15,374 nt of DNA from UHGV virus genome UHGV-0080089; one strand, given 5' to 3'. The first letter of the stretch is position 1; each line of letters opens with the position of its first letter. Below the pieces are notes generated by a model. That model had not been told where the DNA came from. It did no database searches and worked only from the letters and a program-made list of their open reading frames with translations. Source of the DNA: a virus. Both the position numbers and the translations under genes were made by a program. Positions 1-14,291 of the stretch are shown in pieces.

Positions 1-957
1 ACGAAATATCAGCTCCAGCTGGGAGCCATACTTCTCTTCAAATGCCACGGTATCCGCATGCAGCTCGTCGTGATGCTTTCTGCACAAAGGCAACACAAAG
101 AGGTCATGCGCTTTTGTACCCATTCCGCCCTGACCGTGACCTGTCAGGTGGTGGGGATCATCAGCAGGTTTTCCACAACATGCGCACGGCTGCGTCTTAA
201 CCCATCGCGTGTACTTTTCATTAACCCAGCGGCGACGTTTGGGGCGTAACATAAAAGACTCCGGCGACTCCGGATCCACTTTCAGCGCCAGCACCTTTTT
301 CGCTTTATCCTGGATGATGCTGGTGGCAGGAACCGAAGGCACAAGGTCACTTTCCCGGGTAACAGACGGCACAACAGGCTTCGGTAATCTCAGTGCCTTA
401 CGGGCTGCACTTTCCGGTAAGGCATCCGCCAGGTCATTACGAATCAGCCACCAGCACAGTTCCGGCATTGTCACAACGTGACTGTCATCAAAACCGAGAT
501 CCCGACGCACGACAGATAACACCCACCGGGCACAGTTATCCGTTGCCATTGATTCCAGCCGTTCCGTGAACTGATCGCGCAGTTGGTTATCACAGTGCCA
601 GCACAGACGGATTGCGCCCGGCGCGTGTCGCATTGTGGTCATATTCTCGCTGTGCCAGCCGGAATGAGGCCACTGGCAGCCTGTTTCACGAAGTAACCAG
701 CTCTCAAGGCATTCCACGCCCCCCGCCCGACGGATCACAGCCTCATTGCGGAACACGGCCCGAATGGCAGGATCATCCGCCAGCGGTTGTGATGCCGCCG
801 GAACGGCACCACTGGCAAAAGATGAATAACGTTCCGGCTCAGGCTCCAGCAGGACACGCCCCTGCATAAACAGGGGCATCAGCTCTGAACCTGGCCTGAA
901 CAATACGATCCCCATACGCGGGGCAATTTCAGGGGTCAGTAGTGCTCTCACGGTCAC
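1..957 (-). CDS. DUF968-like phage protein with HNH-like Cys/His motif; partial (C-terminus beyond left window edge); start uncertain (GTG 957 or ATG 915)
   Basis: Minus-strand frame is open from 981 down to position 1; absent from the ORF track only because no stop lies in-window. Translation of 252..1 reads MLRPKRRRWVNEKYTRWVKTQPCACCGKPADDPHHLTGHGQGGMGTKAHDLFVLPLCRKHHDELHADTVAFEEKYG (CxxC...HH...C..HH). Starts directly after the KilA-N gene stop (961..959). No convincing SD for any candidate start. Confidence 0.6.
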   Translation of the reverse strand, partial: MTVRALLTPEIAPRMGIVLFRPGSELMPLFMQGRVLLEPEPERYSSFASGAVPAASQPLADDPAIRAVFRNEAVIRRAGGVECLESWLLRETGCQWPHSGWHSENMTTMRHAPGAIRLCWHCDNQLRDQFTERLESMATDNCARWVLSVVRRDLGFDDSHVVTMPELCWWLIRNDLADALPESAARKALRLPKPVVPSVTRESDLVPSVPATSIIQDKAKKVLALKVDPESPESFMLRPKRRRWVNEKYTRWVKTQPCACCGKPADDPHHLTGHGQGGMGTKAHDLFVLPLCRKHHDELHADTVAFEEKYGSQLELIFR

Positions 958-958
958 C

Positions 959-1756
959 TCAATGAACGGTATCGAGCAGCTTTAACAGCTCAGGGAATCG
1001 GGATTCGAAGAAATGCGGCTGCGTCTCGCGCGGATTTGCAGGACTGGTGATGTTCTTGCCGAACATGCAGCCTTTCGCCGTCAGCGACCAGAATTTTTTG
1101 ATGTTGTTAATCGCGGTACGGCTGTATCGTTCGCGCTGCTCGACGATCCCCAGCTTCACCATCTGGTGATATGCCTGATTAGCTGTCAGGCGGATACCAT
1201 ACTGCTTCAGCAGTGCACTCAGTGACAGCGTGGGGCGGCTTGAGCCATCAGGCGCGTCAGCAGGAGCATCAATGGCATAGCGCGGTGCCAGATTCGGTAA
1301 GCCAACAGCCTCCTGGAGTTTCTGACAGGCACCAAGCACTGAAGAGTTAGACAGGTTTAATTCCCGGCGCATAAAGTCCAGCAGAATCACACCAGCCTGC
1401 ATCTTGTCAGCAGCCTGTCCGGATAATTTTTCCGGTGCGCTGGTTACCATGTCGAAAGTACGGATCACCTTCAGATGGAATGACGGGCTGATCCACATTG
1501 CATAGGCATACACCAGTTCTTTGCAGACATACGTCCCCTGGTTATTTCCGCCACGAATAACGTTAACTGACTCTATATTGACCGAGTTGCAAATCTGCAA
1601 CTCGCTTATTAAACGCTCAGTTTGCTCATTGCGGAGCCAGAATGCAGGCTTATGCTTATCCAGAGAACCAGCAGCCCTGTGCAGATCGTTCAGGCTGTAA
1701 CGCCCATAAGCATCACGACGAACTTCAATACCATCAATGACCATCAGATTATTCAT
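959..1756 (-). CDS. KilA-N domain protein (phage antirepressor-like/Bro-N-like)
   Basis: ORF track 959..1789; chosen start ATG 1756 (MNNLMVIDG...) preceded by strong SD (AGAGGAGAAACGAAGT-ATG). N-terminal region MVIDGIEVRRDAYGRYSLNDLHRAAG...YVCKELVYAYAMWISPSFHLKV fits the KilA-N/APSES pattern from memory. Confidence 0.7.
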   Translation of the reverse strand: MNNLMVIDGIEVRRDAYGRYSLNDLHRAAGSLDKHKPAFWLRNEQTERLISELQICNSVNIESVNVIRGGNNQGTYVCKELVYAYAMWISPSFHLKVIRTFDMVTSAPEKLSGQAADKMQAGVILLDFMRRELNLSNSSVLGACQKLQEAVGLPNLAPRYAIDAPADAPDGSSRPTLSLSALLKQYGIRLTANQAYHQMVKLGIVEQRERYSRTAINNIKKFWSLTAKGCMFGKNITSPANPRETQPHFFESRFPELLKLLDTVH

Positions 1757-1775
1757 ACTTCGTTTCTCCTCTTGA

Positions 1776-2165
1776 TCAGGCGGCTGCACCCGCCGTTTTC
1801 TCGTACTTACTGATAGTGATCTCGACCTTCCCTTCCGGGATAACCGGTCCCCACTCCACCAGCATTCTTTTCACCTGACTGTCGTCTTCCCACACCCCCG
1901 CGTGGGTCAGGGCGTCAAACAGCGCCTTGTTATAGTTGTCCAGATCGCGGATCCTGTTATCCGGAGGAAACAACACGATCTCCACTGAAGCAGGTGCCGA
2001 CGTTGGTTTCGGCAGACGACGTAACTGCTCAACTATTGCTGCGCACGCCGCGCTCTGGAATTTTCGCCCCGCCGCGCTTATCAGGCTCTTACCAGCAAAC
2101 GCCCCTTTGTTGGGGTGTCGCCAGTACGTGTTCACGCTGGGCGGAAAAGGCAGGATCAGCTTCAT
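1776..2165 (-). CDS. rusA: RusA-family Holliday junction resolvase
   Basis: 129 aa; LPFPPSVNTYWRH N-terminus and DNRIRDLDNYNKALFDALTHAGVWEDDSQV core match the RusA pattern (LPWPPSNNRYY...RRDLDN..KA.FDALT.AG.W.DD.QV). ATG 2165 overlaps upstream stop (ATGA). Confidence 0.85.
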   Translation of the reverse strand: MKLILPFPPSVNTYWRHPNKGAFAGKSLISAAGRKFQSAACAAIVEQLRRLPKPTSAPASVEIVLFPPDNRIRDLDNYNKALFDALTHAGVWEDDSQVKRMLVEWGPVIPEGKVEITISKYEKTAGAAA

Positions 2166-2488
2166 ACTTTCAGGCCCCTCTCATGTAACCAGTGGGTTGC
2201 ACGCAGCCTTGCGTTTTCCTCACCGGCAAGCAGTGAGCGGATAATCCCGACCGCCTCGCTGTCGTCGTCCTTCACCGCGGTATGAAGCGTGATGCCCCGG
2301 GCCACGCCACGCTTTATCGTGATGACGCCTTTTTTCTCCAGTGCGCGAAGATGCTCCACCGCTGCATTCACTGAACGGTATCCCAGCATGGTTGCCACCT
2401 CCTGATTGGTTGGCGGGAAGCCACGTTCTTTCTGATAAGAAATCAGCATATCCAGCACCTGCTGCTGGCATTGAGTTAACGTCGTCAT
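2162..2488 (-). CDS. LexA N-terminal DNA-binding-domain protein (winged helix only, no S24 peptidase domain)
   Basis: 108 aa; LTQCQQQVLDMLISYQKERGFPPTNQEVATMLGYRSVNAAVEHLRALEKKGVI closely parallels the LexA N-terminus ([53 protein letters not shown]); no Ala-Gly/Ser/Lys protease module follows. ATG 2488; stop overlaps rusA start. Confidence 0.7.
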   Translation of the reverse strand: MTTLTQCQQQVLDMLISYQKERGFPPTNQEVATMLGYRSVNAAVEHLRALEKKGVITIKRGVARGITLHTAVKDDDSEAVGIIRSLLAGEENARLRATHWLHERGLKV

Positions 2489-3138
2489 GCCGCCATCTCC
2501 CTGACCAGTTTTTCTGCCTGCTGGCGAACCTGCGCCAGAAAGGCCTCACCACATGCCTCAAGTTCATCGCGCCCGATGTAGCTGATTGCCGGTCCCTTCC
2601 AGGTCTTGTCGAAAACAGCAATAGCACCAGCGAAGAAAGCGCCTGTCGGCACCTGCTTCTCATCCTTCGGGATAAACCAGGCAGGCAGTTCAAAACCAAT
2701 ACGCCCGCGAATAAAAGCAATATGATCTGCATCTTCCGGCCACCACACTTCGCTGGTGGCAGCTTTGATCAGGAAAACATAGCGCCCGCCTTTATCACGC
2801 ATGGCACTGGCATGCTTCATGATGTAACGCATGCCGGTGATGTATTGCCCCTCATGCTGACTGGCGCGGCTGTATGGGGGATTACCAAAGGCAGCACCTT
2901 TAAGCTCCGCAAGGCGTTCTGACCAGTCATGCGCCAACGCGTTGTCTTCCGCCGTGTAATACGCAGCACATTTGGCGTTATCACCGTCAGTAAACAGATC
3001 CAGAACAAACGGGCCAAACAGAGTGTTAATTCCCCAGAAAATGTTGTCCGGCGTGCGCCACTGATCGCCCACTTCCTTCAGTTCATGGGCTGGTTTGTTC
3101 CGCAGTTCCGCCAGCGCCTGGCAATATTTATTACTCAT
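2485..3138 (-). CDS. Phage N6-adenine DNA methyltransferase (Dam-like, phage_N6A_met type)
   Basis: Catalytic FGNPPY motif and N-terminal WRTPDNIF...NAKC..YYTAED pattern. Start taken as ATG 3138 (MSNKYCQ...), overlapping the upstream TAA (TAATG); the track's longer 3171 start is GTG and overlaps the upstream gene by 33 nt. Confidence 0.8.
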   Translation of the reverse strand: MSNKYCQALAELRNKPAHELKEVGDQWRTPDNIFWGINTLFGPFVLDLFTDGDNAKCAAYYTAEDNALAHDWSERLAELKGAAFGNPPYSRASQHEGQYITGMRYIMKHASAMRDKGGRYVFLIKAATSEVWWPEDADHIAFIRGRIGFELPAWFIPKDEKQVPTGAFFAGAIAVFDKTWKGPAISYIGRDELEACGEAFLAQVRQQAEKLVREMAA

Positions 3139-3626
3139 TAAGCCCCCACGTAATTCCCTGAGAGATACCACTCTTCACCTGATGCAGCCCGCTTACTGCT
3201 TTTCCGTAAACACCGTTCACGACGTGCCAGAAAATTGTTTCGTTCTGGCTGGGAGTGGCTTTCACGGAATGCCGCCATCCACACCGTTGCAGCACGACGG
3301 TATAAGCCCCTGGACTCCAGTTCTTCCGCCTGGCGGGTCAGGCACAAAATCACCCGCGGGTCGTTAGTGCCGACATAGAAATTGCGCACAGGTCTGGTTT
3401 CACGAACTGGTTGTGGTTCCGGATCCTGCGCTCTCTCAGTCAGGCGCGGGAAATGTCTGTGTGTATCTCCTTCACAACGGTGAGCCACACGCCCACTCTG
3501 ACGTAACTTGCTTGCTGACTGCAGAACGCGCTGCCGTGAGTAACCTGCAAAAGCATCCGCAATGTCTCCGGAAGTACAGCCCGGATGGGCTTCAATGAAT
3601 TTCTGAACGTCATTCAAAAGACTCAT
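3138..3626 (-). CDS. Hypothetical phage protein, YfdN-like (~162 aa), putative N-terminal winged-helix
   Basis: ORF track 3138..3632 (GTG); preferred start ATG 3626 with SD GGGGGTG 6 nt upstream, 2 nt after the replication gene stop. Size and position (between replication gene and methyltransferase) match yfdN of CPS-53 as recalled. Confidence 0.6.
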   Translation of the reverse strand: MSLLNDVQKFIEAHPGCTSGDIADAFAGYSRQRVLQSASKLRQSGRVAHRCEGDTHRHFPRLTERAQDPEPQPVRETRPVRNFYVGTNDPRVILCLTRQAEELESRGLYRRAATVWMAAFRESHSQPERNNFLARRERCLRKSSKRAASGEEWYLSGNYVGA

Positions 3627-3628
3627 GC

Positions 3629-4570
3629 TCACCCCCTGAATCCTGCCGGGATCTGGCTGTAGTCCACATTGTCGTAACTGGCTTTGAAGTACGGGTCTTC
3701 GCGTTTTTCTGTGTACGTGCTGACGGACGGCGATAAGCGCAGGGAAAGCTCATCCCATTTTTCCCGCAGCTTCGACGGGCTGAGCACGTTACGGCACCAG
3801 AACGGATCGCGGCTGACGCGGCTGTACATCTCGCAGATTTGTTTGTGAGTACGACCATCCTGCACACACATCAGGCGAATTTCGTTTGCCCAGGCTGTCC
3901 AGTTCGGTTCTTTGGGACGAACCACCTCGCCGTCACATTCGGCAGCCTGCTCGTACAGGGCGATGATTTTTTTCCAGAGCCACTGTGCGCAGGTCAAATC
4001 ATCCTGCGTCCCCCACTGGCGCTTTTTAGGGCTGAATACAACCGCATCAGGATGGCGAGTTAAAAAATCCTGTTCAGCCGTCTGCGTGTCCGGTTGCGAA
4101 GCGTCCGGACGAGAAGGTTTTTTATCTGACGGATCATGTTTTGATTTTACTGACGGATCCCCGCCAGATTCTGACGGGTGAAAACCCGCTTTTTTGCCAG
4201 ATTTCGACGCATCAAATTTTGACGGGTCAGATTTTGATGCGTCAGATTTTGACGGGTCAGAATCTGACAGTTGAGAAAATGCCGCTGCCTGAAGCTTCGC
4301 AACGTTAAGCTGATAAACATTCGACGCATTGCGGTTACCCTGGCGACGCGCCTTACGCGTTAACCAGCCTTCTGCTTCCAGCCGTGCGATAGCCGTTCTG
4401 ACGGTACTCATCCCCGCGCCAATCTGACGGGCAATGGTTTCAATTGATGGCCAGCACACACCTTCGTCATTACTGAAATCAGCCAGGCGGGCCATAATTG
4501 CCACGCTGGATAACTTCATGCCTGATGCAGCGCAACCATCCCATACATAGCCGGTTAATTTAGTGCTCAT
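3629..4570 (-). CDS. Phage replication initiation protein (lambda O-like architecture: N-terminal HTH, internal iteron-encoded linker, C-terminal domain)
   Basis: 313 aa; ATG 4570 with SD AGAGGT; N-terminal wHTH (SVAIMARLADFSNDEGVCWPSIETIARQIGAGMSTVRTAIARLEAEGWL); central peptide repeats SDPSKSDASKSDPSKFDASKS encoded by 15-bp DNA direct repeats. Confidence 0.7.
   Translation of the reverse strand: MSTKLTGYVWDGCAASGMKLSSVAIMARLADFSNDEGVCWPSIETIARQIGAGMSTVRTAIARLEAEGWLTRKARRQGNRNASNVYQLNVAKLQAAAFSQLSDSDPSKSDASKSDPSKFDASKSGKKAGFHPSESGGDPSVKSKHDPSDKKPSRPDASQPDTQTAEQDFLTRHPDAVVFSPKKRQWGTQDDLTCAQWLWKKIIALYEQAAECDGEVVRPKEPNWTAWANEIRLMCVQDGRTHKQICEMYSRVSRDPFWCRNVLSPSKLREKWDELSLRLSPSVSTYTEKREDPYFKASYDNVDYSQIPAGFRG
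4122..4273. repeat. Iteron-like direct repeats (~15-bp units AGATTTTGACGGGTC / AGATTTTGATGCGTC) inside the replication gene; candidate replication origin
   Basis: Four contiguous 15-bp units at 4214..4273 (aaattttgacgggtc, agattttgatgcgtc, agattttgacgggtc, agaatctgacagttg) plus spaced copies at 4165..4180 and 4198..4213 and TGACGG cores at 4127 and 4152. Confidence 0.6.
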
Positions 4571-4918
4571 GACCGACCTCTATTTCCCTGAATTTACGAC
4601 GAAACTGTTCGAGCGGACTGAAGCATTCATGCTCATAACCTTCGCGGAGGTAGATAACCCGTTGTGTTTCCGGCTCCCAACGAATGACTCTGACGGGCAC
4701 TCCGTAGTGATCTTTGAACCAGCGGTTAACTTGTCGCAAAGGACTGTCTCCTTCTGCCGGTTGAAATCACCCACAGCCCACTCTGCAAAGCTGTGGGTTA
4801 CAATTTCCCTGTCACCTGGTACATTCACTGCATAGCAATATTCCACCTTCGCTTTTCCACCCGGAACAGGAAGCGCAATCAGTTGCGAGCGACGGTAGTG
4901 TGTTGTTAAACTGTTCAT
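4563..4918 (-). pseudogene. Frameshift-disrupted small phage gene (~115 aa if restored) between the cII-position gene and the replication gene
   Basis: Track ORF 4580..4918 starts protein-like ([55 protein letters not shown]) then turns into low-complexity sequence; a second frame open from 4766 to stop 4562..4560 reads [65 protein letters not shown] with no ATG. Frame switch lies within ~4750..4770, next to an 8-bp-stem hairpin at 4771..4798. Confidence 0.4.
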
Positions 4919-5523
4919 GCGTTAGTTTCTCCACAGTCACGACACGCTACGGCGCCCGGAGCTGCACACTCGCGGGCGTCATTACTTTCTGAAATGCAAA
5001 AAATTTTGTAGACCAGTGCTGCATGCTCCTGCAGCTTCGAAATTGAGAGGTAGAGCTCGTCATTAATTGCTGTCTTCTCATGCGGTTCCACTACACCGTC
5101 TTCGATTGCTGAACGAATCTGTTTTGAATAACTGCCGATCTGTTCAATGACTTCCAGCAGACGCTGGTTAATATCGGCGTTGTCCACATCCTCGACGTCA
5201 GGAAGAGACACAAAGACGCCATTTGCAGACTGCGCCACAGCATCAGCAATGAAGTGAGTTCCACCAGCACGTTGCAAAATCATTGCCCATCCCAGCGGGA
5301 AAATCTGATCGCCATCGGCACGAAGGCGGTTAAATAATGCGTTCTCTGTTACATCCAGCCAGTCAGCAGCTTCAGCGTAACCCCCCGGCAACGCTGCGAT
5401 AGTTTTTCTGACAGCTTTCACGTACCACTCAGGCTGTTTGTCTACTTTCCAGTGATGCTTACCCACGGTTAGCCTCATCGTTCTGTGGTTTCTGTTAATC
5501 GATTTATCCATTAGATTTTTCAT
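4915..5523 (-). CDS. Early regulatory protein in the cII position (possibly YdaT-like); C-terminal Cys cluster
   Basis: Track ORF 4915..5580 begins at GTG; first ATG at 5523 (MKNLMDK...) chosen, alternative ATG 5511 overlaps the cro-like stop. Weak SD for both. C-terminus [13 protein letters not shown]. Family assignment is by position after the YdaS-like gene, not sequence. Confidence 0.55.
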
Positions 5524-5704
5524 AAAGCTCAGGTTTAAATGGCAACCGTCCGCAAGTTCTATATGCAGCTTCTGCTGCACGTCCTTTTGGAATTAACTGG
5601 CCCGGACGGTTTCGCCACTGATAAACGGCTTCAGTTGTTATGCCGAAAAAAGCAGCAACTTTCTCAATACTGCCGAAGTAGCTTTCGATATCGTCAGTTG
5701 TCAT
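5504..5704 (-). CDS. Cro-like / YdaS-family HTH regulator
   Basis: 66 aa; ATG 5704 with strong SD (GGAGGG 6 nt upstream); HTH region VAAFFGITTEAVYQWRNRPGQLIPKGRAAEAAYRTCG; divergent from cI across a 97-bp operator region. Confidence 0.75.
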   Translation of the reverse strand: MTTDDIESYFGSIEKVAAFFGITTEAVYQWRNRPGQLIPKGRAAEAAYRTCGRLPFKPELYEKSNG

Positions 5705-5801
5705 ACGCCCTCCAAACTAAGTTTTATTAGATGCTAATTACAAATCTATCTTTGGTCAATAAAAACTAAGATTACTTAGTAATTAAAGAAATGGTGCTCC
5801 T
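5705..5801. promoter_or_regulatory. Immunity-region divergent promoter/operator region (OR-like)
   Basis: Perfect 16-bp palindrome ACTAAGattaCTTAGT at 5765..5780; related imperfect site ACTAAGttttATTAGa at 5716..5731. Minus-strand promoter candidate for the cro-like gene: -35 TTGACC (5759..5754), 17-bp spacer, -10 TAGCAT (5736..5731). Confidence 0.6.
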
Positions 5802-6428
5802 ATGGAAACGGTTGGTCAGCGTATAAAAGCTCTGAGAAGAGTTACCAGAACGTCCCAGAAAGAATTGGGTAAATTTTGTGGAGTAAGCGACGTTGCTGTG
5901 GGGTACTGGGAGAAAGACATCAATACCCCTGGTGGGGAGGCACTTTCGAAATTAGCGAAGTTCTTCAATACGTCAATAGATTACATTCTTTATGGTGCTG
6001 AGTTTGAAGGCAAACTCGTCACAAACATGCGCAGAGTTCCTGTAATATCGTGGGTTCAGGCTGGGCAGTTTACTGAGTGCAGGGCAGCAGAAGTGTTTAG
6101 TGAAGTGGACAAGTGGGTAGATACATCATTAAAGATTGGTGATAACTCATTTGCATTAGAGGTTAAAGGTGACTCCATGACTAACCCTAATGGCCTCCCA
6201 ACAATACCAGAAGGCGCAACAGTGATTGTAGATCCAGATGCAGAACCTCGTCATGGAAAAATAGTCATCGCTCGACTTGATGGAACAAACGAAGCTACAG
6301 TAAAAAAATTAGTCATCGATGGCCCTCAAAAGTTTTTAGTGCCATTAAATCCTCGGTATCCCAACATCCCTATCAATGGTAATTGCCTTATCATTGGTGT
6401 AGTCAAAGGAGTTCAATACGAACTCTAA
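5802..6428 (+). CDS. cI: CI-type prophage repressor (HTH_XRE + S24 LexA-like peptidase domain)
   Basis: 208 aa; N-terminal HTH (QKELGKFCGVSDVAVGYWEKD); Ala-Gly in VISWVQAGQF; Ser nucleophile in GDSM and Lys in VKKLV with S24 spacing. Confidence 0.9.
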   Translation: METVGQRIKALRRVTRTSQKELGKFCGVSDVAVGYWEKDINTPGGEALSKLAKFFNTSIDYILYGAEFEGKLVTNMRRVPVISWVQAGQFTECRAAEVFSEVDKWVDTSLKIGDNSFALEVKGDSMTNPNGLPTIPEGATVIVDPDAEPRHGKIVIARLDGTNEATVKKLVIDGPQKFLVPLNPRYPNIPINGNCLIIGVVKGVQYEL

Positions 6429-6439
6429 GACCTCTCTTC

Positions 6440-6510
6440 TCTAACTAAGGCACCGAACTAAGAAAAGTTTGGTGTTTTCTCTTGCCATAATAACTAAGTT
6501 AAGTTAGATT
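6440..6510 (+). promoter_or_regulatory. Second operator cluster downstream of cI (OL-like) with candidate plus-strand promoter
   Basis: ACTAAG half-site motifs at 6444..6449, 6457..6462 and 6493..6498; promoter-like -35 TTGCCA (6482..6487), 17-bp spacer, -10 TAGATT (6505..6510). Confidence 0.4.
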
Positions 6511-6675
6511 TTATGTCAAAGATAACGAACAGGCAGGACGCCCACGAAGTAGCCGCCTGGGGCATATGAAGTCCAGGATGATTCGTTAGCAACAAAAAAG
6601 CGCCCTACAGGACGCTTAGCTCTTTAACAATCTGGTCCCCATCAACAAGTAACTGATAACTTGAGGAGATGTGAA

Positions 6676-6882
6676 ATGCACAAAACAGAACCCAAAATCG
6701 TCGCGCCTGGCTACACAGATGAGGAAATTTATGAGTGGATGACAAAGAAGCTGGCAGCTATAAACCAGCTTCGTGAAGTGCTGTCTTATCGACAGGAAAC
6801 AATAGACTCCTTAAAAAAACTGGATCAGGAAATCACGGTTTTATCACAGGATGTTACTTTAGATATTGTGCAGACAAATTAG
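6676..6882 (+). CDS. Hypothetical small protein (68 aa), AT-rich accessory gene downstream of cI
   Basis: ATG 6676 preceded by GAGGAG (6663..6668) at 7-nt spacing; track ORF begins at TTG 6661. No recognisable motif and not arginine-rich; 3' end overlaps the convergent 144-aa gene by 29 bp. Confidence 0.55.
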   Translation: MHKTEPKIVAPGYTDEEIYEWMTKKLAAINQLREVLSYRQETIDSLKKLDQEITVLSQDVTLDIVQTN

Positions 6883-7288
6883 GATCCCATTCATTTTCGT
6901 CAAAATCATCAAAGTGATGAATTTGTGATCTCCAGTCTCGATAATCTAAAAATTTCTGGGCGGTTACGCTTATTTTATCAAGTGTGAGTTCATCCTGAAT
7001 TGAAAGAAGAAGTTCATCAAATTTCATCTCATTAATCTGTTTTGGCATCCAGTGATGCTTCATCAGAATAAGGTGAACCAGAGCCTTTTTCCCATTCAAC
7101 TGATTATAGGGAGTGCCGAATTTCTTCCGGTGCTCATGTAAGACAAGGTCCAAAAGAGTAAGTAATGTTGCCCTTGATTCAACTTTGCTTATTTCGACTG
7201 ATGACACTACCCCACTGATTTCAATGCCCCGATACTTTCCAACATTTTCACAGTGGGATTTGTACAGCGTATAGATATTACCGGACAT
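6854..7288 (-). CDS. Hypothetical protein (144 aa), AT-rich accessory gene convergent with the 68-aa gene
   Basis: ATG 7288 with AAAGGAAAAGAA upstream; about 35% GC versus about 52% in flanking phage genes; acidic C-terminus (HHFDDFDENEWDP); no family recognised. Confidence 0.6.
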   Translation of the reverse strand: MSGNIYTLYKSHCENVGKYRGIEISGVVSSVEISKVESRATLLTLLDLVLHEHRKKFGTPYNQLNGKKALVHLILMKHHWMPKQINEMKFDELLLSIQDELTLDKISVTAQKFLDYRDWRSQIHHFDDFDENEWDPNLSAQYLK

Positions 7289-7303
7289 TTCTTTTCCTTT
7301 TGC

Positions 7304-7352
7304 GTTGTTGGGGATAACCAGATTAACCGAATCCTTGTTGTTGGGGAATAAC
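7304..7352. repeat. Tandem imperfect direct repeat (GTTGTTGGGGATAAC at 7304..7318 and GTTGTTGGGGAATAAC at 7337..7352, ~33-bp period) just upstream of the 144-aa gene
   Basis: Read directly from the sequence; on the minus strand each copy ends in an AAGGA-like element, the second forming the RBS of the 144-aa gene. Confidence 0.5.
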
Positions 7353-7574
7353 TAGGTCCACCTCGCCTGATGTGGCTAAAAGCAGGCACATAACAGCTAA
7401 GTATTTTCAACCAGAGAGAATCCTTAGCGTTGTGGTGAATGCGGCTCAGCGCACGCGGGTTAAGGTTGAGGCTGACAGTCGACCTTCTGTGGATACCCAC
7501 CCGCCTGGTGTGCAACCTTCGCCAGGCACCGGGAGGCACCCGGCACCACAACTTTATGCTGTGTGTAGTCTTGG

Positions 7575-7619
7575 CGGTACCAGCTTGTACCCTTGCTTCC
7601 GGCTGGTACCGTCCTTTTT
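7575..7619 (+). terminator. Candidate intrinsic terminator / attenuator hairpin upstream of the yfdP-like operon
   Basis: 10-bp perfect stem CGGTACCAGC (7575..7584) / GCTGGTACCG (7602..7611), 17-nt loop, then TCC + TTTTT (7615..7619). The loop is long for a canonical terminator. Confidence 0.4.
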
Positions 7620-7756
7620 ACAAAACAGAGAAGAGCATCACCGGACGACGGGCTCATAACCCAATCCATCCGGGCGGCAGTCACCGCAGGTGTTCTTCTC
7701 TGTTTTGTGGAGAAACTAACCGACCTTGCAGGGTCGATATGATGAGGAGCAGCAAA

Positions 7757-8119
7757 ATGGCTAGCGAACGCAGTACTGATGTGCAGGCATTTATCGGGGA
7801 GCTGGACGGCGGCGTATTTGAAACCAAAATCGGCGCAGTTCTCAGTGAAGTCGCTTCCGGTGTGATGAACACGAAAACCAAAGGTAAGGTCTCGCTCAAC
7901 CTGGAAATCGAACCGTTTGATGAGAACCGAGTGAAAATCAAACACAAACTCTCATATGTTCGCCCGACTAACCGCGGGAAAATTTCCGAAGAAGACACCA
8001 CCGAAACGCCGATGTATGTCAATCGCGGTGGTCGCCTGACTATTCTGCAGGAAGACCAGGGACAGTTACTGACTCTTGCCGGTGAACCTGACGGAAAACT
8101 CCGCGCAGCAGGTCGTTAA
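7757..8119 (+). CDS. YfdP-like early-left phage protein (120 aa), function unknown
   Basis: Track ORF 7439..8119 is a long GTG-initiated extension; chosen start ATG 7757 (MASERSTDVQ...) has GAGGAG (7744..7749) at 7-nt spacing. Size and position before the YfdQ-like gene match CPS-53 yfdP. Confidence 0.65.
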   Translation: MASERSTDVQAFIGELDGGVFETKIGAVLSEVASGVMNTKTKGKVSLNLEIEPFDENRVKIKHKLSYVRPTNRGKISEEDTTETPMYVNRGGRLTILQEDQGQLLTLAGEPDGKLRAAGR

Positions 8120-8184
8120 TATCGTTTTTAATTAACTGATTATTTATCTCATCACTGAATATCTTTATATAGTGAGGACTTATT

Positions 8185-9009
8185 ATGTCTCAGAACTTAG
8201 ACGCAACCGCAATTAATCAAATCCATGCCCTTATTTCTGCTCAGGGTGTTAATGAAATTATCAGTAAGATTGGTGCCGATGCTGTGGCATTGCCTGAGAA
8301 TTTCCGCATTCATGATCTGGAAAAATTTAATTTAAATCGCTTCCGTTTCCGTGGTGCGCTTTCCACTGCCAGCATCGATGACTTTACCCGTTATTCTAAA
8401 GATCTTGCAGATGAAGGCACCCGCTGCTTTATCGATGCTGATAATATGCGTGCCGTCAGTGTGCTTAACCTGGGTACTATTGATGAACCAGGTCACGCAG
8501 ATAACACCGCCACACTCAAACTGAAAAAGACAGCACCGTTCTCTGCTCTGTTGTCTGTTAACGGCGAGCGTAACTCCCAGAAGTCACTAGCAGAATGGAT
8601 TGAAGACTGGGCCGACTATCTTGTGGGCTTTGATGCTAATGGTGACGCTATTCAGGCAACAAAAGCGGCTGCGGCTGTCCGTAAAATCACGATTGAAGCA
8701 AACCAGACCGCTGATTTTGAAGATAATGACTTCAGCGGCAAACGCTCCCTGATGGAGTCTGTCGAAGCGAAGACCAAAGACATTATGCCAGTGGCATTTG
8801 AATTTAAATGCGTTCCGTTTGAAGGTCTGAAAGAACGTCCGTTTAAATTACGCCTCAGTATTATCACTGGCGATCGTCCTGTACTGGTTCTGCGCATTAT
8901 TCAGCTGGAGGCGGTGCAGGAAGAAATGGCTAACGAATTTCGTGATCTGCTTGTTGAGAAATTCAAGGACAGCAAAGTAGAAACCTTTATTGGTACTTTC
9001 ACCGCCTGA
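8185..9009 (+). CDS. yfdQ: DUF2303-family protein, YfdQ-like (274 aa)
   Basis: ATG 8185 with SD GAGGA at 6-nt spacing; sequence and length recalled as matching E. coli CPS-53 YfdQ (memory only, not searched). Confidence 0.75.
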
Positions 9010-9021
9010 TTTCATTACTGC

Positions 9022-9043
9022 AAATGCCCCTGCGGGGGCATTT
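9022..9043 (+). terminator. Hairpin downstream of the yfdQ-like gene (possible partial terminator)
   Basis: 9-bp stem AAATGCCCC / GGGGCATTT with 4-nt loop, 13 bp after the stop; T-tract limited to the stem's own 3' TTT. Confidence 0.35.
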
Positions 9044-9136
9044 ATGGAAACGTAATTTACTCAATAATCGCCGGATGGTGAGGGATTCTTTTTGCCAGAA
9101 TTCAGCGCGGTGCAGCGCATATACGTGGAGAACAAA

Positions 9137-9673
9137 ATGTCATTTATTAAAACTTTTTCCGGGAAGCATTTTTATTATGACAGGATAAATAAAGACGACA
9201 TCGATATTAACGATATCGCGGTTTCCCTTTCAAATATCTGTCGCTTTGCCGGTCATCTTTCGCACTTCTACAGCGTCGCCCAACATGCGGTTCTTTGCAG
9301 CCAGCTGGTGCCGCAGGAATTTGCTTTTGAAGCGTTAATGCATGATGCAACAGAAGCGTATTGCCAGGACATTCCCGCACCACTGAAACGCCTTCTTCCT
9401 GACTATAAACAAATGGAAGAAAAAATAGACGCCGTAATCCGTGAGAAATACGGGTTACCCCCAGTTATGAGTACGCCCGTGAAATATGCCGATCTCATCA
9501 TGCTGGCAACCGAACGCCGCGATCTCGGGCTTGATGATGGCTCTTTCTGGCCTGTACTGGAAGGTATCCCGGCAACAGAGATGTTCAACGTGATTCCACT
9601 GGCACCGGGCCATGCCTACGGGATGTTTATGGAACGCTTTAACGAGTTATCGGAGTTACGCAAATGCGCATGA
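9137..9673 (+). CDS. yfdR: HD-domain phosphohydrolase, YfdR-like (178 aa; 5'-deoxynucleotidase family)
   Basis: Chosen start ATG 9137 (MSFIKTF...) with GGAGA SD; HD motif in ALMHDATEAY plus upstream His (FAGHLSHF..QH); length matches YfdR as recalled. Confidence 0.8.
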   Translation: MSFIKTFSGKHFYYDRINKDDIDINDIAVSLSNICRFAGHLSHFYSVAQHAVLCSQLVPQEFAFEALMHDATEAYCQDIPAPLKRLLPDYKQMEEKIDAVIREKYGLPPVMSTPVKYADLIMLATERRDLGLDDGSFWPVLEGIPATEMFNVIPLAPGHAYGMFMERFNELSELRKCA

Positions 9674-10026
9674 ATATTTTCGAAATGGAAGGGTTTCTTC
9701 GTGGGAGATGTGTACCGCGAGATCTGAAAGTAAATGAAACAGATGCTGAATACCTGGTGCGTAAATTCGATGCGCTTGAAGCTAAATGTGCAGCACAGGA
9801 AAACAAAGTAATACCAGTGTCAACTGAACTGCCACCAGCAAATGAAAGTGTTTTGTTATTCGATGCTAACGGAGAAGGCTGGCTAATTGGCTGGCGTTCT
9901 CTCTGGTACACCTGGGGACAAAAAGAAACCGGAGAATGGCAGTGGACATTTCAGGTCGGGGACCTTGAAAACGTCAATATCACTCACTGGGCAGTAATGC
10001 CAAAAGCACCGGAGGCTGGAGCATAA
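9664..10026 (+). CDS. YfdS-like protein (120 aa; DUF551-like), function unknown
   Basis: ATG 9664 with GGAG 8 nt upstream; overlaps the yfdR-like stop; Trp-rich C-terminal half. Confidence 0.6.
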   Translation: MRMNIFEMEGFLRGRCVPRDLKVNETDAEYLVRKFDALEAKCAAQENKVIPVSTELPPANESVLLFDANGEGWLIGWRSLWYTWGQKETGEWQWTFQVGDLENVNITHWAVMPKAPEAGA

Positions 10027-10331
10027 TGACCACTTTTACCGACAAAGAACTGATTAAAGAAATTAAAGAGCGTATCAGCAGCCTTGACGTGCGAGACGAT
10101 ATTGAGCGCCGTGCTTATGAAATCGCACTCCTATCTCTGGAAGTAGAACCAGATGAACGCGAAGCTTATGAATTATTCATGGAAAAGCGTTTCGGTGACT
10201 TAGTAGATCGTCGGAGAGCAAAAAACGGCGATAACGAATACATGGCATGGGATATGACTCTCGGTTGGATCGTCTGGCAGCAACGAGCTGGTATCCATTT
10301 TTCAACAATGTCACAGCAAGAGGTGAAATAA
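10026..10331 (+). CDS. YfdT-like small protein (101 aa), function unknown
   Basis: ATG 10026 overlapping upstream TAA (TAATG), GGAG upstream; size and position match CPS-53 yfdT. Confidence 0.6.
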   Translation: MTTFTDKELIKEIKERISSLDVRDDIERRAYEIALLSLEVEPDEREAYELFMEKRFGDLVDRRRAKNGDNEYMAWDMTLGWIVWQQRAGIHFSTMSQQEVK

Positions 10332-10681
10332 TGGAGCCATACAGCCTCACACTCGATGAGGCCTGTCATTTTCTCAAGATATCCAGACCGACTGCCATTA
10401 ACTGGATACGCACAGGGCGTCTTCAGGCAACACGCAAAGATCCCACTAAGAATAAATCTCCTTACCTCACAACACGACAAGCCTGCATTGCGGCTCTTCA
10501 GTCTCCGCTGCATACTGTCCAGGTGAGCGCGGGTGATGGCATAACAGAGGAAAGAAAATGTCACTCTTCCGCAGAGGTGAAATATGGTACGCCAGTTTCA
10601 CATTGCCGAACGGTAAAAGATTTAAACAGTCTCTTGGAACAAAGGACAAAAGGCAGGCGACAGAACTCCATGACAAGCTAA
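10331..10681 (+). CDS. xis: Excisionase-like HTH protein (Xis/AlpA type, 117 aa); 3' end overlaps int by 124 nt
   Basis: ATG 10331 (TAATG overlap with upstream stop), SD GAGGTG; [29 protein letters not shown]; lies directly upstream of int. C-terminal extent uncertain. Confidence 0.6.
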
Positions 10682-11721
10682 AGGCTGAAGCATGGCGGGT
10701 CAGCAAACTTGGTGAAATACCTGATATAACGTTCGAGGAAGCGTGTGTCAGGTGGCTTGAAGAGAAAGCACATAAAAAATCACTGGACGATGACAAAAGC
10801 CGGATCGGATTCTGGCTTCAACATTTCGCAGGGATGCAACTAAGAGACATCACTGAATCAAAAATTTATTCAGCGATGCAGAAAATGACAAACCGGCGTC
10901 ATGAGGAAAACTGGAAACTCAGGGCAGAAGCATGCAGAAAAAAAGGGAAACCTGTTCCAGAATACACGCCAAAACCAGCGTCCGTTGCAACGAAGGCTAC
11001 GCATCTTTCATTTATAAAGGCCCTGCTAAGAGCCGCAGAGCGTGAATGGAAAATGCTTGATAAGGCACCAATTATTAAAGTGCCTCAACCGAAGAATAAA
11101 CGTATCCGCTGGCTGGAGCCTCATGAAGCACAAAGGCTGATTGATGAATGTCCGGAGCCATTAAAGTCTGTTGTTGAATTTGCACTGGCAACAGGCTTAA
11201 GACGCTCGAACATCATCAACCTTGAATGGCAACAAATAGACATGCAGCGCCGGGTGGCATGGATAAACCCGGAAGAGAGTAAATCAAACCGCGCAATTGG
11301 CGTTGCGCTGAATGATACTGCATGTCGCGTATTGAAAAAACAAATCGGGAATCATCACCGTTGGGTATTTGTTTACAAGGAAAGCTGTACCAAACCAGAC
11401 GGAACGAAAGCGCCAACGGTCAGGAAGATGCGGTATGACGCAAACACAGCCTGGAAAGCGGCGCTGAGACGAGCAGGTATTGATGATTTCAGATTTCACG
11501 ACTTGAGACACACCTGGGCAAGTTGGCTGGTTCAAGCCGGAGTCCCGTTGTCAGTGTTACAGGAAATGGGAGGCTGGGAGTCTATCGAAATGGTTCGTCG
11601 ATATGCTCACCTCGCACCTAATCACCTTACCGAACACGCACGGCAAATAGACTCGATCCTGAACCCATCGGTCCCAAATTTGTCCCAGTCAAAAAATAAG
11701 GAAGGTACTAATGATGTGTAA
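10558..11721 (+). CDS. int: Tyrosine integrase (P22 Int / KplE1 IntS type, 387 aa)
   Basis: ATG 10558 with SD GAGGAA; N-terminus [34 protein letters not shown] typical of this integrase group; catalytic pattern ...LRRS..., HDLRHTWAS, ...RRYAHL; stop 14 bp from the tRNA-Thr 3' fragment. Confidence 0.9.
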
Positions 11722-11735
11722 CTTATTGATTTAAA

Positions 11736-11781
11736 TGGTGCCGATAATAGGAGTCGAACCTACGACCTTCGCATTACGAAT
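11736..11781 (-). other. 3' fragment (anticodon loop to CCA end, 46 nt) of a tRNA-Thr(CGU) gene; att core / junction remnant, not an intact tRNA
   Basis: Minus strand reads ATTCGTAATGCGAAGGTCGTAGGTTCGACTCCTATTATCGGCACCA: anticodon loop TTCGTAA (CGT), variable loop, T-arm GTAGG-TTCGACT-CCTAT, acceptor 3' strand TATCGGC-A-CCA. Upstream sequence (CTGGTCTCGCTA) does not continue as D-arm or acceptor 5' strand. Resemblance to E. coli thrW is from memory. Confidence 0.75.
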
Positions 11782-11946
11782 TAGCGAGACCAGTGATTCA
11801 AGATGTTCACAGCCGTTTCAGCATACAATAAAAAACATATAAAAATCAACAAAATATACATAAATGCAGTATCAAGATGTTTCGCCTTGTTTCTGATGAT
11901 ATCATGTTAAATGTGTACCCCGCTGTGTACCCAAAAGGCTGAAGAT

Positions 11947-13266
11947 ATGACTTTTACTATTACACAAGACAGACAATTGGCTTCATTGACCGTTACTAAA
12001 GAAGAAAAAGAAATCTTATTTGCTGTAAAATCTAAAGCTGGGGGAGGACTCTTTATACGTGTTCGTTATGGTAGCGACAATAAAAGCTGGATTTATCGTT
12101 ATCGAATAGCTCAAAAGCCAGCTAAATTAACACTAGGTAGTTACCCTGCCATGGGATTAGCTCAAGCTCGTAAAGCTCATGCGGATGCAATTGAATTAGT
12201 AAGAAAAGGTATAGATCCTCGTCATATTAGAAAAAATGAAAAACAAAAAAATGAACAAATGATTATTTACTCTGAATTATGGAAAGATTGGATAGAATTC
12301 AGAAAGACAAGTAAACCAATTAGCACCAGAACCCTTGCAGATTATGAAGGGACTTATCACCGCCACCTTGAAAAAGCATTAGGAAACCTTCGCATTGACG
12401 AACTTACCAAAAGCGTTATTTTTGAACATCTCAGTAATGTAAGAAAAACCAGTTCTGAAGCAGTTCGTAAAGGATTAATTATTCTAAATATGACTCTTGA
12501 TCATGCCAACTTACAGGGTATGCTTGAGCATAACCCAGCACGACTGCTCAAACCAGCAATGTTTGGTGCATCGATGAATAAACCTCGCGAGCGATGGCTT
12601 CCTGAGAATGAACTCCGGATGCTATGGAAGGCTTTGGATGATGCTACTGTTGGAGGAGGCTCCATTGCATCTGGTGGCTATGGAGTTTCCTCTAGTGTGG
12701 TATTATCTCATTCTGTCGCAAATGCACTCCGTTTGATTATTTTCACAGGAGTGCGCCGCTCTGAAGCGGCACAAATGCGCTGGGATCAAATTAATGGAGA
12801 GCGTTGGACCATACCAGCCACTAAAAATGGGAAAAGCCATATTGTTACTTTACATCCGTATATGCTTTCTTTAATAAAAACACAACGTGAATTCACTGAA
12901 GGTGCATATGTTTTTGGTTCTACTAGCAAACCTGGCTTTCCCATCACAAATGACGCTCTGACTCGCGCGTTAGAAAGGGTTCGCTCTAAGTATCTAGCTG
13001 AACTTACTCCATTTTCTCCTCATGATCTGCGTAGAAGTGTTGCGACTGGATGCGCTGAATACCTTGATGCTCCAGAGCGCCTAATAGAGTTACTGTTAAA
13101 TCATGTACCCAAAGACCGTTTAATACGAACATATCAAGTCGGACAACAAGCTGAAAAATTAAAAAATTTATTTATAGAATGGGGGAATTTTATTATGAAT
13201 AACGTCATTACTGTGCAGAAGAATGCTCCGGATAATGTTATTCATATAAAATTTGGGAACAGATGA
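11947..13266 (+). CDS. int: P4-family tyrosine integrase (DUF4102-type N-terminal domain), about 38% GC
   Basis: Track ORF 11911..13266; preferred start ATG 11947 (MTFTITQDRQ...) with AAAGG SD; N-terminal arm-binding-like region (GGGLFIRVRYGSDNKSWIYRYR...LGSYPAMGLAQARK); catalytic pattern ...GVRRSEA..., HDLRRSVATG, ...LIRTYQVGQ. Confidence 0.85.
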   Translation: MTFTITQDRQLASLTVTKEEKEILFAVKSKAGGGLFIRVRYGSDNKSWIYRYRIAQKPAKLTLGSYPAMGLAQARKAHADAIELVRKGIDPRHIRKNEKQKNEQMIIYSELWKDWIEFRKTSKPISTRTLADYEGTYHRHLEKALGNLRIDELTKSVIFEHLSNVRKTSSEAVRKGLIILNMTLDHANLQGMLEHNPARLLKPAMFGASMNKPRERWLPENELRMLWKALDDATVGGGSIASGGYGVSSSVVLSHSVANALRLIIFTGVRRSEAAQMRWDQINGERWTIPATKNGKSHIVTLHPYMLSLIKTQREFTEGAYVFGSTSKPGFPITNDALTRALERVRSKYLAELTPFSPHDLRRSVATGCAEYLDAPERLIELLLNHVPKDRLIRTYQVGQQAEKLKNLFIEWGNFIMNNVITVQKNAPDNVIHIKFGNR

Positions 13267-13358
13267 TAAAAATACATGCATGGTCTGAGATACCCTGTCT
13301 ACTCGACCATGCAGTATGGTTCAACTAAATCAGTCACAACAAGAAATGATTAGTTTTA

Positions 13359-14207
13359 TTAGATATTGTATGGGATTATTTCTGGATAATACTTCGCAAT
13401 GATGTCATTTAGCCGATCAATCAGTTCCGGTTTTCTGAACGTGATGTGCGCGGAGCCCTTCTTAAAGTATCTGATGCTGAACATCTCATCTTCATAGCAT
13501 GTTTTACCCTGAACAGACTGGATGTGCTCATCCAAACGAATGATGATGTTTTCCCGGTTGTCGGGAATGGGGTTGCCACTGAAGAGATGCAGCATCCTTT
13601 CCAGGTCGGCAACCCGGTCAGTCTGTTGCCCGGTGATAAGATGAAACCCCCACCGGTCCCACCTCACCAGGTTGTTGACGATAATTTTACTGCCAAATTT
13701 GCAGGGGCAATTGGTTTTGTAATTCCAGCTCAGTCCCCTGAAGACGTTGATCACCCCTCGCTCAAACACCTCATCCTTATTCTGGTGTAGTTGTTCGAAT
13801 GTGCTCAGAATGTTCGCTTCACTGATTTCCGGAAAATTATCGTACTCCAGTGACCGGTACCATGTATCACGGGCCTGTGCATCCATTAAGGAAAGTATCC
13901 CTGAACGTTGCATCAGGTCACGCCAGATTTCGCGGTCAAGGTTCCGGGTGATGGCTTTCATTGCCATTTCCGGTTTCTCCATCAGCCAGCAGCCGCAGCG
14001 AAAATCCTGTTTCATGGCCCAGTCCAGTGCAGTTTTACCTCCGATGCTTTCCGTCAGCACTGAAATTTCAGCCAGTTGCCGGATAAGCATTTCGGCTTGT
14101 TGCAGTGCTGCATACCGTACCGTCACAACGTGTCGGATACTGGTTGAGCCGATAACGTCCGTATGCCCGTTGACCACTTCCGGACGGGAGACTGTGATAT
14201 CAGACAT
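13359..14207 (-). CDS. Hypothetical protein (282 aa), island cargo of unknown function; two CxC motifs (FRCGCW, NCPCKFG)
   Basis: ATG 14207 with AAGGA upstream; no family recognised with confidence; convergent with int2 and directly downstream of the truncated Ag43 fragment. Confidence 0.6.
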   Translation of the reverse strand: MSDITVSRPEVVNGHTDVIGSTSIRHVVTVRYAALQQAEMLIRQLAEISVLTESIGGKTALDWAMKQDFRCGCWLMEKPEMAMKAITRNLDREIWRDLMQRSGILSLMDAQARDTWYRSLEYDNFPEISEANILSTFEQLHQNKDEVFERGVINVFRGLSWNYKTNCPCKFGSKIIVNNLVRWDRWGFHLITGQQTDRVADLERMLHLFSGNPIPDNRENIIIRLDEHIQSVQGKTCYEDEMFSIRYFKKGSAHITFRKPELIDRLNDIIAKYYPEIIPYNI

Positions 14208-14291
14208 AATCGATATTCCTTTTTGCAGATAAATGAAAATGCCAGACCTGTTCAGGCTGGCGTCAGTGGAATGAAGTCTGGTGAGTAAGAC

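Follow-up and report, generated by a model that had tools for sequence, protein, structure and literature searches.

The 15,374-nt sequence UHGV-0080089 (referred to in full as the window) carries a fragment of a tRNA-Thr gene between two integrase genes, and this raises the question of whether the fragment is the attachment site of a single element or the point at which two elements meet. A preliminary description, made from the sequence alone, proposed two elements integrated in tandem at one tRNA site. The comparisons described here indicate that the fragment is very probably a hybrid att site in the middle of a tandem array at the Escherichia coli thrW hot spot, and not an attP. The features of the locus are collected in Table 1.

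Table 1. Features of the window and of the phage attachment region compared with it (window coordinates).
Feature	Position	Strand	Description	Source
Lambdoid prophage early/regulatory region	1..10246		DUF968, KilA-N, RusA, methyltransferase, replication, Cro/CI, yfdP-yfdT homologues	Pfam
xis, prophage excisionase	10331..10681	+	Overlaps int1 start	HTH_17, TIGR01764
int1, predicted thrW-specific tyrosine integrase, SfII/SfV/P22 family	10558..11721	+	387 aa	
GTCCCA repeats (two)	11671-11676, 11682-11687 (span 11671..11687)	+	int-proximal phage arm	
Spacer, int1 stop to core	11722..11735		14 bp; resembles natural thrW 3' trailer	
46-bp att core	11736..11781	-	Last anticodon-stem base of thrW to CCA; equals K-12 thrW and the attP cores of SfI and phage L	
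"P22 attP site"	11752..11774	-	23 bp, wholly within the 46-bp core	Phage L record
int2-proximal island att arm and int2 leader	11782..11946		No homology to phage attP arms	
Tandem TGTGTACCC repeats	11912-11920, 11924-11932 (span 11912..11935)	+		
int2, P4-type tyrosine integrase of the island	11947..13266	+	439 aa	
Island cargo	13359..15374	-	DUF4942 gene, 13359-14207; Ag43/AIDA autotransporter N-terminal fragment, 14292-15374	Pfam
Phage P arm			Sequence TATAAGAATCCGC...	

The preliminary description had placed a 46-nt tRNA-Thr 3' fragment 14 bp after one integrase stop codon and about 165 bp before a second integrase gene, with no 5' half adjacent, and both the coordinates and the match to thrW bear this out. 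The reverse complement of 11736-11781 is exactly nt 31-76 of thrW, the tRNA-Thr(CGU) gene of E. coli K-12, and its CCA end points toward the 3' end of int1. This copy is the only one in the window, where none is expected (200 shuffles); the 5' half of the tRNA is absent beside it, and the sequence immediately to its right reads TAGCGAGACC rather than the GCGCTGCTCTACC expected from thrW. ARAGORN and Rfam (at gathering thresholds) called no tRNA in the whole window, as expected because the fragment is only 46 nt long. The fragment lies on the minus strand, a detail that the preliminary description had left unstated.

The 14-bp distance between integrase gene and core is the same in SfI and phage L, and the spacer together with the int1 stop codon is identical over 17 bp to the thrW-proximal arm of the island that begins with int2. 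On the other side, 165 bp separate the core from the RefSeq-annotated start of int2 (ATG 11947), while the first in-frame ATG (11911) lies 129 bp past the core. A scan of 11500-12100 for promoters and terminators found nothing, including no promoter-like site upstream of int2.

The left side of the core is phage DNA. The xis gene, whose mechanically called ORF begins at 10247, is co-linear with the annotated xis genes of SfI and phage L. The int1 product contains a full-length PF00589 domain (3.2e-48, residues 184-355), and the gene is 98.1-98.8% identical at the nucleotide level to the int genes of SfII, SfIV, SfI and SfV (98.5% for SfI) and approximately 80% identical to those of ES18, L and ST64T. 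The same protein (WP_001132557.1) adjoins an intact thrW in genomes YZ3E2001 and FORC_081. In YZ3E2001 the same early region also lies against intact thrW-proA, and positions 1-11781 of the window are 99.6% identical to this prophage. We assign int1 to the SfV/P22 family as a thrW-specific integrase, with catalysis at the core predicted from sequence. The two GTCCCA repeats are candidate arm-type sites for Int1, and the sequence TTTGTCCCA is common to the int-proximal arm of the window and the other phage arm, as represented in LH13-b (L008 8420-8428).

An alternative account of this geometry would be a simple attP, that is, one unintegrated or circular element whose two integrase genes flank its own attachment site. 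It would be consistent with the single core copy in a 15.4-kb window and with the arrangement of int stop, 14 bp and core, which is exactly that of phage attP sites: P22, L, ES18 and SfI/SfII/SfIV/SfV share with the window the int stop, the 14-bp spacer and the 46-bp tRNA-Thr core, and the window reproduces exactly the 23-bp sequence that is annotated as the attP site of P22. However, in the free phage genomes the core is followed by a conserved P arm and gtrA, and sequenced phages match the window only to 11783 before running into gtrA. The far side of the window's core instead consists of the island arm and then int2, as in an attL-type hybrid site. In addition, no integrase of a sequenced phage is more than 25% identical to Int2, and the 206 places at which int2 occurs, in 202 of 5,426 complete E. 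coli genomes, are all chromosomal. The two flanks of the core also occur apart from each other, as detailed below. A simple attP is thus extremely improbable, in agreement with the preliminary description, which had named it as the alternative to a tandem array.

The same 5,426 genomes were surveyed for the junctions that the array implies, and every predicted genotype exists among them. The empty site, yagP/thrW/proA, is present in 948 genomes. The int1 side is joined to intact thrW and proA in 1,210, and in at least 99 the same core links the int2 side to yagP, with no phage at that junction. The latter number is a lower bound, as the 80% coverage criterion misses diverged chromosomal flanks; EC1515, for example, has the same island-only junction but fails the criterion. 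The junction of island arm, core and yagP was also observed in four further sampled genomes; L73 and C311 are examples of island-only strains. The junction of the window itself (int1/core/int2) occurs in 25 genomes, and the opposite order of the two elements in 19, confirmed in FORC_081. The existence of the opposite order implies that both core copies are used. Each of the two elements is thus also found alone at this site. Two integrated elements sharing a tRNA-Thr core are what the preliminary description had proposed.

Individual relatives supply what lies outside the window, which itself contains the middle core copy only; the outer copies are known from relatives alone. Strain LR-27 is 99.96% identical to window positions 10290-15374, and 100% identical at the junction, and, 29 kb farther right, contains an intact thrW, so that the intact tRNA gene presumed to lie beyond the right edge is present there in this relative. 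The LR-27 prophage has been reduced to xis-int, and its left core copy is deleted. This left copy is found in LH13-b, in which yagP, a core, a 40-kb prophage, a second core and int2 follow one another; the further core copy that the preliminary description called for is thus located, in a relative, at the opposite end of the prophage. FORC_081 is the sole genome in which all three copies were seen directly, and its two elements are in the opposite order. Among single genomes, CAVP814 matches the entire window best (96% coverage, 96% identity). No left core copy was found in CAVP814, where IS elements and a type I restriction-modification locus interrupt the end of the prophage, and its island was followed for 95 kb without reaching thrW. 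The phage structural modules beside the same junction differ between these genomes, with lambda-like tail genes in CAVP814 and contractile-tail genes in LH13-b.

On the right side of the core, int2 encodes an N-terminal PF13356 domain (P4-type arm-binding; 1.2e-18, 67.5 bits) and a C-terminal PF00589 domain (1.7e-16), with a score of 26.3 bits against Phage_int_M PF22022 (cutoff 27). Candidate R, K, HxxR, H and Y residues, assigned by eye on the translation, occur in GVRRSE, TKNGKSH, PHDLRRS, LLNHVP and IRTYQ. There is no meaningful similarity between int1 and int2 (best local match 16/59 identities, E 0.002). Identification of int2 as K-12 intF was ruled out, as the proteins are 25% identical. 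The gene is 99-100% identical across 192 genomes. The island is IS-ridden and partly deleted, with pseudogenes and a truncated Ag43; the AIDA gene is annotated as truncated in LR-27 as well. Its other end carries CP4-57-type genes (an HTH regulator, YfjI and YfjJ-like), which would flank attP in the circular form. The int2 gene begins a CP4-like genomic island unrelated to the prophage, and Int2 is predicted to be active and to recognize the core.

P4-type integrase genes are usually located directly downstream of an intact tRNA gene and transcribed in the same direction. The int2 gene departs from this layout, being located at the thrW-distal end and transcribed away from the displaced core. 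It could accordingly be a passenger or relic, in which case the island would not be an independent thrW-specific element and the core would be the scar of an event catalyzed by another integrase. Besides the unusual position and orientation, a score of 79.6 bits against the P4-like NCBIfam integrase model NF007246, far under its cutoff of 434, would be compatible with such a relic. Against it, int2 is an intact ORF with candidate catalytic residues, keeps the same 165-bp distance to the core in all genomes examined, and has a counterpart in K-12 CP4-6, where another integrase gene likewise occupies the thrW-distal end; the CP4-57-type genes of the opposite island end likewise argue for an element with its own circular form. 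The TGTGTACCC repeats are also difficult to reconcile with a relic, being rare, present in both island arms and found nowhere else nearby. The window contains just the two occurrences (0.05 expected), the second of which extends to TGTGTACCCAAA (11924-11935), and in 49 kb of LR-27 the sole TGTGTACCC(AAA) belongs to the other arm of the island, 56 bp away from the thrW core and in the same orientation. These repeats are candidate arm-type sites for Int2, or possibly an int2 operator. On balance, we consider a relic int2 improbable.

Taking the core as the middle site of an array, the full order would be yagP, core, prophage (xis-int1), core (the window copy), int2, island, intact thrW and proA. 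The prophage to the left of the core would have entered by means of Int1, an SfV/P22-family integrase that recombines within the 3' part of thrW, and the CP4-like island to the right would carry its own P4-type int2 beside its distal core copy, the array having been formed by site-specific recombination within the shared core. Any core copy should serve Int1 as attB, because the 23-bp P22 attP site is wholly inside the 46-bp core. Because the core in the window is flanked by a phage arm on its left and an island arm on its right, each element should be able to excise alone. Int1 and Xis should remove the prophage through the left and middle copies, leaving the island-only state, while Int2, with the AlpA-like factor of the island's other end, should remove the island by recombination between the middle copy and thrW, after which the prophage would adjoin the intact tRNA gene. 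The preliminary description had also allowed for excision of the composite. This part of the proposal is not supported: joint excision is not predicted under the lambda model, since the arms at the two outer sites belong to integrases that are unrelated to each other.

Two histories are possible and lead to the same product, which does not reveal which element came first. The history that we favor, with some confidence, is that the island was already in place and the phage entered through the displaced core at its distal end. The reverse, in which the island arrived second by Int2-mediated integration into the intact thrW (attL) of a lysogen and pushed the prophage and the int1-side core away from the tRNA, appears less likely but has points in its favor beyond the identical outcome. 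The very numerous lysogens that have int1 at thrW (the 1,210 genomes above) would be frequent recipients, and in a single experimental case the incoming phage SfI used attL (the intact tRNA) of the resident SfX (PMC3306764). Several observations speak against a late island, however. The island looks old and immobile, based on its IS elements, pseudogenes and truncated Ag43 and on the near-identity of int2 across the 192 genomes; the differing structural modules of the prophages in CAVP814 and LH13-b suggest repeated phage arrivals beside a resident island; and the opposite order exists with the same island in FORC_081.

The tRNA fragment displaced to the distal end of the island could be a fully competent second landing pad, used by SfV-type phages approximately as often as intact thrW when the island is present. 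The 25 arrays in the window order and 19 in the other order underlie this suggestion, which we nevertheless regard as unlikely. Were it correct, islands would multiply attachment sites; in the window order, excision of island or phage would interconvert three genotypes; and phage induction might mobilize the neighboring island by way of cross-talk at the hybrid site. Based on genome counts, intact thrW and the displaced core of the island are both occupied by the same phage family, which indicates that a resident island does not block the thrW hot spot and may duplicate it. The tandem arrangement accounts for an odd-looking tRNA fragment between two integrase genes and sets the correct boundaries of two mobile elements left unlabelled by annotation pipelines. 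Otherwise it is what site-specific integration at a tRNA hot spot ordinarily produces, and it leaves current views unchanged.

Tandem integration at thrW is already documented, and the arrangement in the window is of this ordinary kind. Literature searches on ptwF returned unrelated papers only, and those on excision of thrW/CP4-6 elements returned nothing useful. Tandem prophages at thrW in O157:H7 clade 8 have been described, with later decay by deletion of one partner (PMC9997748). They resemble the window in having two elements at one site, thrW being among the sites involved, and LR-27 shows similar decay; the likeness of the O157:H7 elements to the window is one of category only.

For the island, the nearest parallel is CP4-6 of K-12 (thrW ... 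intF/core/yagP), which occupies the same site, with the integrase gene at the thrW-distal end and divergent from a displaced core. Its cargo belongs to the same family as that of the island, including a YeeP-like GTPase, DUF932, antirestriction, RadC and a CbtA-type toxin-antitoxin. However, IntF is only 25% identical to Int2, the core-adjacent arms differ, and K-12 has no prophage beyond the distal core copy of CP4-6. The island of the window shares the site and geometry of CP4-6 but is a different element.

The closest precedent for the array as a whole is the experimentally demonstrated tandem integration of SfI and SfX at thrW in Shigella flexneri (PMC3306764). That system has the same integrase family (int1 being 98.5% identical to SfI int at the nucleotide level), the same 46-bp core, and head-to-tail elements with a core copy between them that lacks the tRNA 5' half. 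The two systems differ in their partners and in their placement: SfI and SfX are two phages sharing one type of integrase, and the newcomer took the intact-tRNA site, whereas the window pairs a prophage at the tRNA-distal site with an island that is not a phage and whose P4-type integrase is unrelated.

A 46-bp sequence (TGGTGCCGATAATAGGAGTCGAACCTACGACCTTCGCATTACGAAT) separates the prophage integrase gene, int1, from a second integrase gene, int2, and its reverse complement is identical to nucleotides 31-76 of K-12 thrW, encoding tRNA-Thr(CGU), a stretch that starts with the final base on the 5' side of the anticodon stem and includes the terminal CCA. This core lies on the minus strand, 14 bp past the int1 stop codon with its CCA end pointing toward the int1 3' end, and occurs once in the window (0 copies expected by chance). 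To its right the window reads TAGCGAGACC where thrW reads GCGCTGCTCTACC, and because of this departure neither ARAGORN nor Rfam detects a tRNA in the window. The int2 start annotated in RefSeq relatives is an ATG 165 bp past the core, and a further in-frame ATG is found upstream. The preliminary description of a 46-nt tRNA-Thr 3' fragment without a 5' half, 14 bp after one integrase gene and about 165 bp before another, is therefore accurate.

The int1 gene encodes 387 aa (PF00589 at 3.2e-48). Its DNA identity to phage integrase genes is 98-99% for SfII, SfIV, SfI, and SfV of Shigella and about 80% for the P22-group phages ES18, L, and ST64T. The phage records share the window's layout, in which xis overlaps int and the int stop is followed by 14 bp and the 46-bp feature, labelled "attP core" in SfI and "tRNA-like fragment / P22 attP site" in phage L; gtrA then follows in the phages. 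The annotated 23-bp P22 attP site recurs unchanged in the window, entirely within the 46 bp, and homology to every phage genome ends at 11783, two bases beyond the core. A prophage of YZ3E2001 matches window 1-11781 at 99.6% identity, and there an intact tRNA-Thr gene and then proA-proB lie beyond the gene for the same Int protein. This layout and the YZ3E2001 match identify the left 11.7 kb as the int-side portion of a lambdoid prophage from the thrW-integrating family.

The same early region and integrase are joined to differing morphogenesis modules (L002 7664-31355 in CAVP814 versus L008 12452-31616 in LH13-b and L006 1-15285), with lambda-like tail genes (gpJ, tape measure, Lom) in CAVP814 and contractile-tail and baseplate genes in LH13-b, YZ3E2001, and FORC_081. 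These differences are ordinary lambdoid mosaicism, yet they show that several distinct phages use one int/att module. Nine genomes resemble the window left of the junction only from 11563/11564 (region 11563-11781); their integrase gene is more divergent and matches int1 only over the final 160 bp, which form the att arm region. This suggests that the arm is swapped as a module.

In the int2 product (439 aa), a tyrosine recombinase domain accompanies PF13356, the arm-binding domain of the P4 type, and inspection shows candidates for the R, K, HxxR, H, and Y residues. It is unrelated to Int1, 25% identical to K-12 IntF, and at most 25% identical to integrases of sequenced phages, in keeping with its earlier assignment as a second, unrelated P4-family integrase. 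In the window int2 is followed by genes for DUF4942 and an Ag43-type autotransporter fragment, while relatives carry a CP4-type set (DUF957, CbtA/YeeU toxin-antitoxin, RadC, antirestriction, DUF932, Ag43, and a YeeP-like GTPase). The int2 segment is found in 202 of 5,426 complete E. coli genomes, chromosomal in all, and is 165 bp from a core copy in every genome examined. The window's island is internally deleted: DUF4942 directly precedes a 360-aa N-terminal Ag43/AIDA autotransporter fragment, and about 7 kb of the relatives' island (DUF957, CbtA/YeeU, RadC, antirestriction, DUF932, DUF905, and the Ag43 C-terminus) is absent, as in LR-27 (L001 21960-24035). Past int2, the CAVP814 island extends for more than 95 kb (L003-L004, record 1728396-1824000) versus 29 kb in LR-27. 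It contains numerous IS elements, defence genes, an additional lsr operon, and multiple sets of C4-dicarboxylate/aspartase genes.

Features of the window, and junction types among 5,426 E. coli genomes, counted with synthetic probes made from fetched loci (at least 80% of the probe covered)
Feature or junction	Window position	Genomes
int1	10558-11721	
int1 stop and 14-bp spacer	11719-11735	
Core (minus strand)	11736-11781	
P22 attP identity	11752-11774	
Alternative int2 ATG	11911	
Candidate Int2 arm repeats	11912-11932	
Annotated int2 ATG	11947	
Region of the island's internal deletion	14208-15374	
Empty site: yagP, thrW, proA		948
int1, intact thrW, proA		1,210
yagP, core, int2 (island alone at junction)		at least 99 (a lower bound, because diverged chromosomal flanks miss the coverage criterion)
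int1, core, int2 (the window's junction)		25
Opposite order: island's thrW-proximal arm, core, phage P arm		19

Arrays were followed in single genomes, with all three core copies present together in FORC_081 alone. LH13-b reads yagP, core, a 40-kb prophage with xis-int1 at its end, core, and int2, and its left junction has the conserved phage P arm (the gtrA side of the core), identical to SfI over about 165 bp. In LR-27, identity to the window reaches 100% at the junction and 99.96% across window 10290-15374, and intact thrW-proA lies 29 kb right of the junction. FORC_081 encodes the same Int1 protein, but its order is reversed, running from yagP through a core, the island, a second core, and the prophage to thrW and proA. 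The junction counts and these arrays indicate that the two elements are independent insertions into one att sequence; by the same comparisons, the window's core is a hybrid site between prophage and island, with both core copies used in nature. The claim of tandem elements at one tRNA site is thus supported, as is the placement of the intact tRNA beyond the right edge (in LR-27), and the further core copies sought are present in relatives, one on the left in LH13-b and two besides thrW in FORC_081. Of the LR-27 prophage (L001 17241-20322), xis-int1 and one fragment remain, joined to a truncated paoC, and the left core copy, yagP, and paoD have been lost; here the same array has decayed, and its phage is no longer able to excise.

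The core is flanked by the phage int-proximal arm on the left and the island int2-proximal arm on the right. Under the lambda/P22 model of arm-dependent recombination, Int1 and Xis would act between the left copy, which carries the phage P arm, and the window's copy, which carries the P' arm; the phage would leave, and the island would again stand alone at the junction. A crossover by Int2 between the window's copy and thrW would free the island, and the prophage would then abut an intact thrW. For this Int2 probably needs a small HTH protein, whose gene neighbours the YfjI-like and YfjJ-like genes at the thrW-proximal end of the island. All three genotypes resulting from the predicted excisions occur in the genome collection. 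The preliminary description also allowed for excision of the composite; the model predicts excision of each element alone but not jointly, because the outer sites bear arms of different integrases, the exception being rare homologous recombination across the short repeat.

Candidate Int2 arm sites are two tandem copies of the 9-mer TGTGTACCC, 12-35 bp upstream of the int2 start, with none elsewhere in the window (0.05 expected); in 49 kb of LR-27 the sole copy lies in the opposite arm of the island, 56 bp away from the thrW core and in the same orientation. Arm-type sites flanking an attP would be distributed in this way, which supports use of the site by Int2. The repeats could also serve as an autoregulatory operator; they end 12 bp short of the annotated int2 start codon and overlap the in-frame ATG at 11911 (region 11912-11946). 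A consensus scan of 11500-12100 finds no sigma-70-like promoter.

The int1 stop and spacer (TAACTTATTGATTTAAA) are identical to the 17 bp beside thrW in the island's proximal arm (L007 8520-8536), so the unrelated elements have about 63 bp in common, beyond the 46 bp. TAACTTATTGATTTAAA is also similar to the native thrW trailer TTAAAATCAAAGAGTTA (tRNA sense). Core copies vary just past the CCA end (GATTTAAA versus GATTTTAA), even among int1-proximal copies of different strains (window 11730-11735 and equivalent positions in L002, L008, L010, L011, and L012), which may reflect plain polymorphism or else crossing over or conversion beyond the 46 bp.

Either order of arrival would leave the same structure. 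We favour a phage landing at a resident island, because the island is degraded, the int2 segment (arm and gene) is nearly invariant across genomes, and prophages at the same junction differ in structural modules.

Overall, the observation is confirmed and its interpretation supported, save for composite excision. thrW is listed as one of the tRNA genes most often used for integration in E. coli (PMC7545054). SfI, whose integrase belongs to the int1 family, has been integrated beside SfX at thrW in the laboratory with an att site between them (PMC3306764), and tandem prophages at this site are reported for O157:H7 (PMC9997748). K-12 CP4-6 has the same geometry as the window's island (thrW ... 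intF, core, yagP); its second copy of the 46 bp, also exact, spans record position 297209-297254. The arrangement is a further instance of a well-known kind, differing from documented thrW tandems only in its pairing of an SfV-type prophage, in the tRNA-distal position, with an Int2-type island.
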